Positions 11,823-25,755 of a stretch of DNA of 64,000 nucleotides are shown here, in pieces. The position numbers were made by a program, and so were the translations under genes. Positions within the stretch are counted from its first letter, which is position 1. Each line of letters begins with the position of its first letter. Source of the DNA: an uncultured Verrucomicrobiae bacterium (GTDB lineage: Bacteria; Chlamydiota; Chlamydiia; Chlamydiales; Rhabdochlamydiaceae); the NCBI GenBank assembly GCA_963818965.1, contig CAWFUG010000009.1, forward strand, positions 32,001 to 96,000, read 5' to 3'. The notes beneath the pieces were generated by a model. That model saw only the letters and a program-made list of their open reading frames with translations, was not told the DNA's origin and searched no databases.

Positions 11823-11904
11823 TTGCATTTAATTTTTGTCTTGATCTACCATTTCGTTAAAAATATTAATCCACATTCCGCTGGCTTTTGAGGCAGTTTT
11901 CATG
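11823..11904 (+). promoter_or_regulatory. Conserved collagen-cassette leader/putative promoter, copy 2
   Basis: TTGCAT-N18-TACCAT; ungapped similarity to the copies at 4839 and 19099. Confidence 0.65.
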
Positions 11905-14094
11905 AAGCAATCTCGACGCCCATTCATTCTATTGTTCAGCTTCAGTGTCATCACTTTTTTGGTGGGTTTTGTAAAAGGGTATGCAGATTCAGAGGAAGTG
12001 GTTCTCATCAATTGTGGAAAGAAGCCCAAGGTGGGGCCGCCTGGCGTTGCAGGTGATCCAGGAGCGCCCGGCCCTCCAGGCCCTCCAGGGCCATCGGGTA
12101 TGACGGGTTCAGATACGGGGATGACCGGCCCGACAGGTCCACAGGGATCTTCTGGGTCCACAGGCCCGACGGGATCTACGGGAAGTGCCACAGGTTCCCT
12201 AGGTACGACAGGAGATATAGGTCCGATTGGGCCGATGGGTTCTGCAGGTTCTACAGGGAGTGCTACAGGCTCAACTGGGATGGCAGGGCCGACGGCTGCA
12301 ATGGGGTCGACAGGAGAAACAGGCCCCATCGGCTCAACGAATAGTACAGGCCCTACTGGGTCTACTGGTTTGACTGGACCTACAGGTCCGACCGGTCCGA
12401 CTGGCTCCACCGGCTCGACCGGTTCCACTGGCCCGACAGGACCAATGGGCCCTACGGGTATCACAGGCTCTACAGGTTTCATAGGGATGACGGGCTCTGC
12501 GGGTCTCACCAGTATAACCGGCCCTACAGGATCAATGGGAAATACAGGCGGCACAGGCTCTACAGGCTCTACAGGCTTGACAGGTCCGACGGGTTCGATA
12601 GGACTGACTGGCTTTACGGGAATGACAGGAGCAACCGGCTCCACGGGTCCCACGGGTAGCACAGGAGTTACCGGCTCAACGGGATTTACTGGATCGACGG
12701 CGCCGACAGGACCCACTGGGCCAACAGGTTTTATGGGCCCCTCCGGTCCAACGGGATCTACTGGCTCAACGGGCCTAACAGGCTCAACGGGTTTAACCGG
12801 AACGACCGGAACGACTGGACCAACGGGTCCTACTGGAACAACCGGCTCTACAGGTTCAATGGGCGCAACAGGTAATAGCGGAGCAACGGGGTTCACCGGA
12901 ACGACCGGACCTACCGGTTCCACAGGATCAACCGGTCTAACAGGCGGGGCAGGTTTTACGGGTGGCATTGGAGCTACCGGAATAACTGGCCCAACAGGCT
13001 CAACCGGCGAGACAGGTCCCACGGGTTCGACTGGACAGGCAGGCTTTACAGGAATGACGGGATCAATCGGTCCCACGGGTCTCCTGGGAAGCACAGGGTT
13101 TACCGGAACAACTGGATTTACGGGATCCACCAGCCTGACAGGCTCTACAGGTCCCACAGGACCGACTGGTTTCACGGGACCGACCGGAATGACCGGACCA
13201 ACAGGTCCCACTGGTCCGACAGGTTTCACGGGTCCTACAGGCACTACAGGATTGACAGGGTCGACTGGAACAACCGGTAGCACTGGAATTACGGGGCCCA
13301 CAGGTTCCACGGGACCCACAGGTTTGAGCGGTACAACGGGATTTACGGGTCAGACCGGCTCAACCGGTATAACCGGTCCTACGGGTGGCACTGGATCTAC
13401 CGGCTCGACGGGACCAACTGGCCCGACGGGAACGTCCGGCCCAACGGGAACGACCGGGCCAACCGGCTTTACAGGCACGACAGGAACAACTGGCCCCACT
13501 GGATCCACGGGCTCCACTGGCTTCACAGGACCAACAGGTCCCACGGGTCCAACAGGATCTACGGGAGGATCTACAGGATCGACCGGCTTCACTGGTTCCG
13601 CAACGGGAGGAACAGGTCCGCAGGGTGGAGTAGGTTCCGTAGGGAATCAGGGATCCTTTTTGGGAGTCACAGACTATGGGTATTTTTATTTAACAGCTAC
13701 GACCTCTCTATTGGCCAATGCGTTCATTCCGTGGACTCAAGGAATGGTCTCGGGGGGAATTTCACTGAGTGGATCGACGATCAACCTTTCGAATCCGGGA
13801 GCGACTACGGCATCTTATTACGTCGTATTCGGTTATATGGTTGGTACGCCTGGTGCGCCATCCTTTTCTTCCATTGGATTAGAAATAGCAGGGGTTGTCC
13901 CCCCCTCGGGTTCGCAGTTGATCTTGTCTACGCAGCAAACGAGTGCTGTGGGCGATTGCGCTCGCATCATCCAAGCGGCAGCTGGGGGGACCACCACTTT
14001 GCAGGCGGTCAATTTGAGCGGAGCGACAGTACCGTTACACTCTTCAGCCGGAAATGAAATAGTCGCTTTTTTGACGATTTTTAGAATAGAGTGA
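11902..14094 (+). CDS. Secreted collagen-like protein, cassette 1, head type A (C-GKKPKV-G)
   Basis: Signal peptide; G-X-Y domain 12034-13659 (542 aa); BclA-C-like tail. Confidence 0.92.
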
Positions 14095-14179
14095 AATAGA
14101 TCGTGCCAAAAGTGTAGACGTGTGGTTTAAAAGAGGTGGAAAATAGGAAACTAAGGTGAAAAGAAGAGGCGATGGCTAT

Positions 14180-23615: not shown

Positions 23616-23619
23616 GCAG

Positions 23620-25755
23620 ATGAGACAGATTTTTCTTTCGAGCTTTTTGCTCTTTTCTCTTTCCTCTTACGCAGAAGAGCCGGTTCACCTCTTAAGTGGA
23701 AAATGCGGCGCGCTGCCTGAACAAGGATCCGCAGGGGGCCCCGGTTCACCCGGTTCTATCGGTCCACCAGGCCCACCGGGCTCGACGGGTTTTTCTACTA
23801 GTATGACGGGGAGCACAGGGCCTGCAGGAAGCACAGGGTCTACCGGCCCCATTGGATCTACAGGGGGAGTAGGAGAAAGCGGAAGCCAGGGGGCCATGGG
23901 AAGTCCTGGGCCGCTAGGAGGAACAGGCTCTACTGGATCTGTCGGGCTGACCGGCACTACGGGTAATACAGGAATGACCGGCTTAACAGGCCCCACAGGG
24001 TCGATGGGCACCACGGGTCCTACCGGTCCGACGGGGTCGACAGGGGGAACCGGTCCCACAGGTTTAACGGGCCCCCTCGGCCCTACGGGTACCACCGGTG
24101 CCACGGCTCTGACAGGATCGACCGGTCTAACGGGAACAACCGGAATGACTGGCATGACGGGAATGACAGGTCCCACCGGTATGACAGCTGGATTAGGGGC
24201 TACGGGATCCACAGGGATCACAGGTTCGACTGGCCTAACCGGTTTGACCGGGCCTACGGGGGCAACAGGTGCCACAGGTGCTACAGGAGTTACCGGTCCA
24301 ACTGGACCGAGCGGACCCACGGGCTCGACAGGAGCCACCGGACCGACCGGCTTTACTGGCCGGACAGGTCCTACCGGACCGACCGGTAGCGCAGGGCCCA
24401 CGGGAATTACCGGTTTCACTGGACTGACTGGTCCTACGGGACCCACAGGCCTGACCGGCTCCACAGGCCCGACTGGTCCCACTGGTTCAACCGGGTTAAC
24501 GGGTTCTACCGGATTCACGGGTTCTACCGGCGGGGCAGGTATCACAGGGTCCACGGGTTTTACTGGTCCGACCGGCCCCACGGGACCAACAGGCGCAACA
24601 GGCCTCACAGGCTCTACCGGGCCGACAGGTCCCACGGGTCCTACGGGGCCGACAGGCCTCACAGGTCATACAGGATCAACTGGCCCGACGGGCCCCACAG
24701 GGCCGACAGGCTCAACTGGTCCTACAGGACTCTCCGGGTCTACTGGCTCGACGGGCTTTACAGGCTTAAGCGGTCCCACCGGCTTTACAGGATCTACCGG
24801 CTCGACCGGTCTTACCGGCCCCACGGGTCCGACCGGCCCCACGGGAGGAGTGACCGGTTCCACGGGTCCTACTAGTTCGACGGGCTCTACAGGATTTACT
24901 GGGGGGGCAGGGCCGAGTGGTCCTACTGGGCCTACAGGTTCCACAGGTCTCTCAGGGTCCTCTGGCTTTACCGGTGGGACGGGCGCCACAGGACCTTCCG
25001 GTAGCGCTGGTGTAACAGGAGGAACGGGAGCTACAGGTCTGAGTGGTCAGACGGGCAGCACAGGGACTACAGGTTCTACGGGATTTCCAGGATTTACTGG
25101 GTTTACAGGTTCCTCGGGATTTACAGGATCGACGACGGGAGCCACGGGATTCACAGGTCCTACAGGGGCGACGGGATCTACTGGATTCACTGCATCGACC
25201 GGAGCTACCGGAAGCACAGGATCGAGAACAGGAGCCACGGGTCCCACGGGAGTTACAGGGCCAACGGGCCCAACGGGTTCCTCGGGTCCAACGGGATCGA
25301 CCGGTAGCACAGGAACCTCCGGTGCTGGAGCCACACAGCCGTCCTTTGGCACTATAGTAGGGGGGTTCGTTACGTCGTGGCCTCCCGGAGGTGTCGCTAC
25401 CACAGCAGGCGGATTTGCCATTCCGCAAGGGGGTGTTGCCTTGAACGGTGGGAGCGGTTTTAATCTCGCCACACTTTCTGAGGGGCTGTACCTGGTCTCT
25501 TTTGGCATCAATCCAAGCGACACGATTAATTTCCCTATTGTAATTGGACTTTCACTCAACGGTGCTACCCCTGTTGCTGGCTCTTCTCTCATTGTAGGAC
25601 AGGCATCGAATTCTGGAGTAGCGGCTATAATGGGTACGAGCTTGTTGCTTAACATACCAGGAGAAACGACGCTGCAGTTGATCAACATGGGCACAAGCAA
25701 TTTGACCCTGGAGTTTTTTGAGGACTCTTTCTTTTTCACGGTAGTTAGATTATAA
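23620..25755 (+). CDS. Secreted collagen-like protein, cassette 2, head type B (C-GALPEQ-G)
   Basis: Signal peptide ending SSYA; G-X-Y domain 23725-~25323 (533 aa); globular tail. Confidence 0.92.

Follow-up and report, generated by a model that had tools for sequence, protein, structure and literature searches.

Length-matched triplets of collagen-like genes in a chlamydia-like bacterium suggest three-chain bacterial collagen fibres

We analysed a stretch of 64,000 nucleotides (nt; the window) from an uncultured bacterium of the Rhabdochlamydiaceae (GenBank assembly GCA_963818965.1, contig CAWFUG010000009.1, here C9, positions 32001–96000), which carries two closely spaced triplets of collagen-like genes, T1 and T2. 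A six-frame scan of all 12 contigs of the genome (2.24 Mb) yielded nine collagen genes, arranged as three same-strand triplets, with collagen-type open reading frames (ORFs) confined to 13.1–57.8 kb of C9; a profile of the C-terminal domain likewise found exactly nine copies genome-wide, one of them, that of gene G1, cut in two by a frameshift. The third triplet, made up of the giant genes G1, G2 and G3 of ~7.7 kb each, lies at C9:13.2–36.7 kb, mostly upstream of the window, and was overlooked in the initial annotation of this DNA. That annotation had described six secreted collagen-like genes, in two close triplets behind a common leader, a description borne out by the ORFs, by Pfam and by comparison of the leaders. 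Pfam Collagen matched the six small chains at E values of 1e-64 to 4e-75, and all seven chains tested at 1e-64 to 4e-190, indicating that a long Gly-X-Y region is present.

Triplet 1 starts with a leader at positions 11818..11901 of the window (plus strand, as are all the collagen genes), in which GAGG stands just before the ATG. Its genes are T1_A (11902..14094), encoding a signal peptide, the head CGKKPKVG (type A), a helix of 542 amino acids (aa) and a knob of class alpha; T1_B (14156..16423, likely ATG near 14180), with a type B head, a 535-aa helix and a beta knob; and T1_C (16407..18623, likely ATG near 16425), with the head CGRSSKKGP (type C), a 538-aa helix and a gamma knob. Triplet 2, whose leader occupies 19094..19177 (plus strand), consists of T2_A (19157..21367, likely ATG 19178), with head A in the form CSKKPKEG, a 541-aa helix and a divergent beta-like knob; T2_C (21384..23615), with head C in the form CNRSSKKGP, a 540-aa helix and an alpha knob; and T2_B (23620..25755), with head B, a 535-aa helix and a very divergent third knob. 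Among the giants, G1 has the head CGEKPKQG (type A), G2 the head CGVPSKKGP (type C) and G3 a type B head at C9:29056, upstream of the window; the 3' part of G3 (1558 of ~2540 codons) falls within the window at 3..4679 and contains internal 1026-nt tandem repeats and a gamma-class knob. Genes within a triplet are separated by ~1–86 nt or overlap, and a conserved block of ~85 nt with GAGG is found directly 5' of the first ATG in all three triplets. A scan for consensus promoters and terminators gave counts no higher than those of shuffled sequences (4 against 5.8 and 12 against 13.2). One head of each type had been assigned to each small triplet, in the order A-B-C and then A-C-B, exactly as we find, and the giants are also ordered A-C-B. 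The helix lengths given in the initial annotation agree with ours for the A and C chains, whereas both B chains had been put at 533 aa.

Each chain runs from a signal peptide through a short acidic/hydrophobic stretch, one cysteine and a proline-rich run into the long helix, and ends in a knob of ~140 residues. In all six small chains the head cysteine lies exactly 7 residues before the first glycine of the helix; the proline-rich run comprises 8–9 triplets (17 in T2_C), and the first interruption of the helix comes 31–37 residues past the cysteine in five of the six. The helices are composed of 27–31% Thr, ~10% Pro and ~0–1% charged residues, and with so little charge the choice of partner chains must therefore rest on the end domains. 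Helix and knob are connected by a linker of 5–7 residues, the length of which showed no systematic stagger between classes. The T1_A knob, modelled with AlphaFold2 (predicted local distance difference test, pLDDT, 83), is an all-beta jelly roll that Foldseek places close to the tip of F-BclA (9h38, template-modelling (TM) score 0.76), to BclA (1wck, TM 0.73) and also to TNF ligands; viral collagen proteins of Klosneuvirus (TM 0.77) and Tupanvirus, as well as phage fibres, share the fold. The cut-off of Pfam BclA_C (PF18573) was passed by one of seven chains, T1_B. As modelled, the tails are BclA/C1q/TNF-like knobs.

The lengths of the chains were compared within each triplet by the distance from the head cysteine to a conserved knob motif, and by the number of helix triplets left after removal of the chain-specific residues (1–7 per chain) that shift the glycine phase, here called triplet-equivalents. 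The A, B and C chains of T1 measure 554, 549 and 552 aa from cysteine to knob, with 179, 178 and 179 triplet-equivalents; the A, C and B chains of T2 measure 554, 552 and 547 aa, with 178, 179 and 177. The same distance in the giants (A, C and B) is 7217, 7219 and 7207 nt, values uncertain by a few nt owing to assembly indels, and the giant chains are ~4.4-fold longer than the small ones (~2400 residues against ~550). At 0.286 nm per residue, the small sets with their 177–179 triplets would form rods of ~153 nm and the giants rods of ~0.69 µm; provided that the chains do form trimers, this comes close to the ~155 nm proposed earlier for the small sets.

The earlier statement that helix lengths match in spite of diverged repeat sequences also proves correct. 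Across 36 pairs of helices the DNA identity is 62–66%, the background level for this composition, and is reached in many alternative registers, with the exception of G1 against G3, at 72–73% and with shifted offsets. Identity at positions other than glycine is no better in the cysteine-anchored register than at distant in-phase offsets, and collinearity is seen only across the first 60–90 residues of pairs with the same head. Because helix pairs stand at background identity in many registers, recent gene conversion of the helices is excluded on sequence grounds. T1_A and T2_A have their first three interruptions in common and differ in the later ones, with 5 and 7 phase-shifting residues, and both total 554 aa despite the differing positions of the bulges.

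Matched lengths and 1:1:1 composition might nevertheless be mere by-products of block duplication, of gene conversion between neighbours, or of too little time or too few indels for drift. Block duplication alone would indeed yield the composition. It is the length matching that goes beyond chance, since the sequences are not collinear and the lengths co-vary between two length classes: helices at background identity, without collinearity past ~60–90 aa and with phase-shifting residues at differing places, still add up to the same number of triplets. Nor are these genes incapable of drift, as orthologues in related genomes do change length (280 aa in genome G041 against 225 aa in G043).

The tails were classified by knob identities and by a maximum-likelihood tree of 50 knobs (support given as ultrafast bootstrap, UFBoot, / SH-like approximate likelihood-ratio test, SH-aLRT). 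Alpha knobs are those of T1_A, T2_C and G2 (100/99), beta knobs those of G1 and T1_B (95/73) with T2_A as sister (87/81), and gamma knobs those of G3 and T1_C (91/81), whereas the long branch of T2_B lies next to the mini-collagens of related genomes (93/88; see below), and T2_B counts as a third tail by elimination only. In addition to heads A, B and C, each triplet carries an alpha, a beta and a third tail. How heads and tails are paired differs between operons, with A-alpha, B-beta and C-gamma in T1, and A-beta, C-alpha and B-third in both T2 and the giants. What is robust in this pattern, as far as sequence can tell, is the partner of alpha: head A in T1, head C in T2 and the giants. Paralogues must therefore have exchanged parts, and no operon was left with two alike. 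Such recombination shows that paralogues exchange parts, as an explanation by gene conversion and duplication would have it; block duplication accounts for the composition, but does not explain why it survived the head-tail exchanges, and completeness maintained through exchange is a prediction of a one-of-each requirement at both ends.

Self-BLAST revealed a separate tandem array in every giant, made of ~5.4–5.9 copies of a unit of 1030, 1029 or 1026 nt (343 aa), and found no internal repeat at ≥80% identity in any of the six small genes. Tandem Repeats Finder at a score of 400 gave no match, because the longest period allowed was 500. Array copies are 82–94% identical within one giant, less so with distance, and 63–73% identical between giants; the arrays span positions 368–6447 in G3, 1155–6751 in G1 and 1144–6708 in G2, with totals within 12 nt. 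Either the giants underwent three parallel expansions, or a single helix expanded and was copied long ago to the other two genes. The 72–73% identity of the G1 and G3 arrays, together with the 1029-nt period common to all giants, fits the latter and so lends some weight to the by-product explanation. Under both histories, arrays of 1-kb units as alike as these would be expected to drift in copy number, yet they have remained equal while diverging, even though their spans differ. We consider it improbable that the matching is a by-product. Because the other two operons kept ~550 residues, the co-expansion of the giant chains is the strongest argument for an equal-length constraint within an operon. 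A possible link between the small helix length and the giant length minus its repeats was dropped, as no consistent relation emerged.

All three giants are frameshifted in the assembly: G1 12 times (11 in the helix and one in the knob), G2 twice (once past the head, where a base is missing from a C run, and once near C9:22140) and G3 once (past the head). With 15 frame changes in the giants and none in the six small genes, and with long 1-kb repeats being hard to assemble, the giant triplet could represent decaying pseudogenes or an assembly artefact, in which case only the small triplets would be real. Two public metagenome runs from peat and soil, X1 and X2, hold small shares of the region (0.06 and 0.05 of its words), and their contigs, 93–98% identical and of scattered coverage, show indels at five places, four of them inside giants. 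At all four the X1/X2 contigs are one base shorter than the assembly; three of these places coincide exactly with frame changes (C9:17516, 17801 and 29152), where the Gly-X-Y frame is restored, and the fourth, in the 5' region of G3, falls within a T7 run. As the X1/X2 contigs lack the extra base, at least some of the lesions are errors of assembly or peculiar to this strain, and in relatives the giant genes seem to be open at the sites covered, which are three of the 15. The repeat copies, moreover, differ by 6–18%, enough for long-read assembly to resolve them, and even a recently decayed set would record past co-expansion. Decay or artefact thus seems to us a very improbable account of the giants.

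To the evidence from lengths and tails can be added a structural model of the mixed alpha, beta and gamma knobs of T1, each with a few triplets, which scored 0.64 against 0.07 for the best of three controls; that mark is reached by 51 of 78 solved complexes and by 2 of 108 mismatched pairs. At least 90% of contacts coincide between the runs, and pLDDT of the partner is at least 80. ABC was the only knob combination modelled, and the score speaks for compatibility and not for preference, as the model cannot rank ABC against AAA, BBB and CCC; the pass may stem from the likeness of these knobs to solved BclA, TNF and C1q trimers.

We suggest, with a probability of roughly 0.55, that the locus encodes secreted ABC-heterotrimeric collagen-like fibres, which is our best reading of it. 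Its grounds are the gene anatomy, the domain fold, the length matching, the lack of homogenisation and the head-tail recombination, and the assembly, the disulfide, the glycosylation, the location and the function that we infer would be as follows. Each of the three operons would supply one chain of each kind at equal dose, and the alpha, beta and gamma knobs would select one another and nucleate the trimer. The near-uncharged, Thr-rich Gly-X-Y helix would then zip from the C-terminus to the N-terminus and stop at the Pro-rich clamp, where the single cysteine, 7 residues before the first glycine, would lock or anchor the N-terminal end. Selection would hold the chains equal in length because they must end together. 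The Thr-rich surface would probably be O-glycosylated by a flanking GT92-family enzyme and other sugar enzymes, and the fibres would probably coat the surface of an obligate intracellular chlamydia-like cell and mediate host contact. We see an even chance that the proposal applies in its fullest form, namely that bacteria possess obligate ABC collagens, in this lineage with interchangeable head and tail modules, with lengths equal within one triplet, and with concerted resizing from ~153 nm to ~0.69 µm as a 343-residue unit expands in parallel in each of the three genes.

Matches to the knob profile occur in 12 of 41 related genomes (this genome, G000, included) and in 43 of 129 genomes of the family. 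B or C heads and close alpha, beta or gamma knobs were absent from the other genomes of the family scanned, and an A-like head, C-x-K/P-P-K/R-x-G, is widespread among the relatives. Several tandem clusters have matched helices: 280/279/279 aa in G041, with three different heads and knobs 40–45% identical; 226/218/219 in G131, with knobs 27–42% identical; 36/36/36 in both G102 and G087, an orthologous trio in two genera; and 198 three times in G067, which are young duplicates, 63–72% identical. Matched pairs are found in G014 (427/429) and G080 (830/825). Unmatched clusters occur in G043 (225/283/291 plus 227), in the fragmented G001 of the same genus (~419/291/259), in G085 (316/27), in G054 (445/111) and in G100 (623/224, 5 kb apart), and five further G041 genes, with helices of 751, 642, 616, 729 and 748 aa, are unmatched as well. 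Single genes are present in G011 (429 aa), G019 (340 aa) and G111, a lone giant of 2289 aa in a 2513-aa protein. The spread in length is ≤3.6% in 10 of 12 tabulated clusters, and the members of 15 adjacent pairs from genomes other than G000 differ, in relative terms, by a median of 0.36%, a value reached by none of 10,000 shuffles, in a test whose clusters were picked after seeing the data, include non-independent kin and leave out the G085, G054 and G100 pairs, the extra G041 and G043 genes and edge-truncated genes. The triples of other genera are lineage-specific in the knob tree; length-matched tripling therefore has more than one origin in the family, in which single-gene forms persist. 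The initial annotation had proposed looking in related Chlamydiae for A+B+C triplets of co-varying length: matched tandem clusters do recur, but there is no A/B/C set elsewhere, and singletons and unmatched clusters exist.

Two kinds of gene in the relatives depart from this anatomy. The mini-collagen trio (L030 3069-5035 in G102, L031 3000-5040 in G087) encodes a signal peptide, 36 helix residues without a head cysteine, and a C1q-like knob; the three genes are one-to-one orthologous between the two genera and are followed by a Legionella-OMP-like gene, and the trio is the most C1q-like arrangement in the family. Two of the long G041 genes (L028 1163-3355 and 3846-6617; helices of 642 and 751 aa) lack a jelly-roll knob and end 9 residues past the helix with a knob-like last strand (…ITIIQIQ / …VTIIQLQ).

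A profile search of 1.84 billion protein representatives returned 416 matches at E ≤ 1e-3. Four of the six matches inspected (P0001–P0003 and P0006), the best among them, are fragments of this genome's own genes, and the best match outside it has an E value of 1e-18, so that close sequence relatives are lacking among these representatives. A word-indexed protein search with the B head (residues 1–110) and the alpha knob gave no match, nor did two metagenome scans, one with the beta knob and one with the alpha alignment. Public protein collections hold the collagen genes of this genome as C-terminal fragments of 116–170 aa that begin at internal Met codons; automatic gene calling thus truncates such genes and renders them effectively invisible in protein databases.

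Several observations weigh against heterotrimers. The single-gene relatives (G011, G019 and G111) must be homotrimers, the unmatched clusters of G043, G001, G085, G054 and G100 show no equality of length, and the helix length kept between genera in the absence of triplets (429 aa in G011, 427/429 in G014) means that a fixed length is possible without co-assembly. Beyond the first interruption, interruptions are not aligned among the chains of one triplet, and one cysteine per chain leaves an odd cysteine in any trimer. The beta and gamma classes rest on 39% identity and moderate support, and T2_B is unplaced. In complex modelling, one member of a close family can be mistaken for another, and every giant carries the frameshifts noted above. 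Much of this would be expected if each chain were homotrimeric, as in BclA, the locus making three kinds of fibre with different tips and a uniform height favoured by selection, and the giants forming a taller second layer. Characterised bacterial collagen-like proteins are described as homotrimers in PMC8968730, and AlphaFold 3 (AF3) modelling of C. difficile BclA1-3, as summarised in 10.1101/2025.06.24.661383, gave no heterotrimers. Fibres of this kind would, however, leave unexplained both the presence of one of each head and tail per operon through recombination and the joint expansion of the giants with a common 1029-nt period; they would demand a precision of one triplet in ~179 across six separate fibres, and they must be set against a mixed-knob model that passes at 0.64. 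We regard equal-height homotrimers as possible but rather unlikely. The proposal of ABC co-assembly made in the initial annotation has meanwhile gained the giant triplet, the tail classes and the mixed-knob model in its favour, although that model leaves room for homotrimers.

The genes invite comparison with four known systems. BclA is a homotrimer from one gene whose repeat number varies among strains. Like BclA and F-BclA (Bacillus exosporium, F-ENA), the present chains start with a short N-terminal part, followed by a Thr-rich Gly-X-Y helix and a jelly-roll knob, and glycosyltransferase genes adjoin their genes; unlike the Bacillus proteins, they come as three chain types of fixed lengths per operon, in a Gram-negative-type intracellular host that forms no spore. 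In C1q, the collagen part is ~80 residues long, its chains share one kink, and six trimers are gathered into a bouquet. As with its A, B and C chains, there are three clustered genes, collagen regions of equal length, a C-terminal head of the gC1q/TNF fold, which would choose the partner chains, and a cysteine just before the helix, but the rods here, which are predicted from genes, would be of ~540 or ~2400 residues and almost uncharged, and any kinship with C1q is at the level of the fold only. Giant-virus and phage collagen fibres have the same knob fold and are fibres of viral particles.

The fourth system is found in Pasteuria ramosa, a Bacillota endospore former, many of whose collagen-like genes (PCLs) are grouped in triplets that contain one gene each of groups 1–3, always in the same order and on one strand; block duplication of a single ancestral triplet is their presumed origin (PMC13233619; 10.1101/2024.02.09.579640). 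The former source describes triplet organisation as seemingly confined to P. ramosa, PMC10329263 states the function of the triplets as unknown, and PMC7743900 raises heterotrimers in Pasteuria as no more than a possibility. The portions of this literature at hand yielded nothing on matched or co-varying helix lengths or on trimer composition. The present genes are likewise three in tandem on one strand, one per sequence group; in contrast to the fixed order in Pasteuria, they are arranged A-B-C in one triplet and A-C-B in two, and the order of tails varies too. The view that neither heterotrimers nor triplets are known from bacteria has to be qualified, since ordered triplets of three groups have already been published in P. 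ramosa. In the library searched, we found no literature on such collagen genes or surface fibres in Chlamydiae, nor on heterotrimeric collagen operons in prokaryotes. The locus combines a BclA-type fibre, C1q-type logic and Pasteuria-type triplets, and what is new and most telling is the co-expansion of the chains of one operon.

Mixed three-chain collagen fibres are so far established only in animals, and the locus suggests that bacteria may form them as well. The treatment of bacterial collagen-like proteins as homotrimers (PMC8968730) limits their use as models of, or materials resembling, heterotrimeric animal collagens. If our reading is correct, a bacterial ABC system whose helices are uncharged and whose end domains are modular would offer modules for chain selection that depend on neither hydroxyproline nor salt-bridge codes, and would show how three genes can keep their lengths equal while their sequences turn over. 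ABC logic would then account for the Pasteuria triplets too, and would provide a testable reading of these triplets, which determine infectivity in Pasteuria (PMC10329263). The reading also predicts two surface fibres of fixed length, probably glycosylated, on chlamydia-like bacteria.

Enzymes that might decorate such fibres are encoded nearby. Directly after G3 lies a GT92-family glycosyltransferase gene (4879..6048, plus strand; Pfam PF01697, E 5.6e-31), a candidate for O-glycosylating the Thr-rich helices, which by analogy with BclA are likely glycosylated. GT92 adjoins collagen genes in five of ten relatives' genomes scanned (G014, G011, G019, G041 and G111) and is absent from the flanks examined in G067, G080, G131, G102 and G087. 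Genes for GT2-TPR, GT25 and inverse-autotransporter-like beta-barrel proteins also recur near relatives' collagen loci. Convergent with the last collagen gene is a Methyltransf_24 methyltransferase gene (25764..26414, minus strand; Pfam PF13578, E 7.9e-16), the product of which may act in sugar methylation. Three ATP/ADP translocase genes, all full-length, are present in the genome, and a Chlamydia MOMP-like gene stands beside a collagen pair in one genome of the same family, both of which would fit an obligate intracellular, chlamydia-like organism. Pfam Chlam_OMP6 gave no match either in this genome or in the control.

Further downstream, a few kb from the collagen cluster, are two Maf/PseD-like genes (Pfam MptE-like; 29438-30923 and 31601-33289, plus strand), the first split into two overlapping ORFs, with a MORN-repeat gene between the copies. 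Genes of the Maf/PseD type put nonulosonic acids on Ser/Thr of flagellin; no flagellar genes were seen in the window, and the two genes may belong to a glycosylation island for the fibres. In four of the ten relatives' genomes scanned, genes for IAT_beta barrels (Pfam, E 1e-8 to 1e-11; loci L002, L003, L004 and L027 in G014, G011, G019 and G041) adjoin loci with collagen and GT92 genes, whose counterparts in this genome had no such gene in the flanks examined; the barrel proteins could export or anchor the fibre. A short element inserted in the 5' region of G3 (C9:28785-29010; L001 ~16785-17010), translated as RWPNSKFQAGCGIG, recurs at the start of the GT92 ORF (window ~4900-5100), translated as RRPNSKFEADCGIR, and may be a small repeated or mobile element. 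Directly upstream of the leader of the giant triplet is a tRNA-like sequence (C9:12940-13020; L001 ~940-1020), at which contig depth is very high in X1 and X2 alike, as would be the case for a conserved tRNA.

Between the giant and the small triplets lie genes for three paralogous secreted proteins (5996-7645 on the plus strand; 8141-9721 and 9927-11501 on the minus strand) of ~525–549 aa, two of them 86% identical and the third 39%, with no match in Pfam or NCBIfam. A model of modest confidence (pLDDT 62) resembles a seven-bladed beta-propeller lectin with a C-terminal beta-sandwich, with the Photorhabdus PLL/PHL lectins as best matches in the PDB (TMt 0.66–0.70). PLL/PHL lectins bind fucose, rhamnose and O-methylated sugars, and, going by the model, the three paralogues could bind glycosylated fibres or host glycans.

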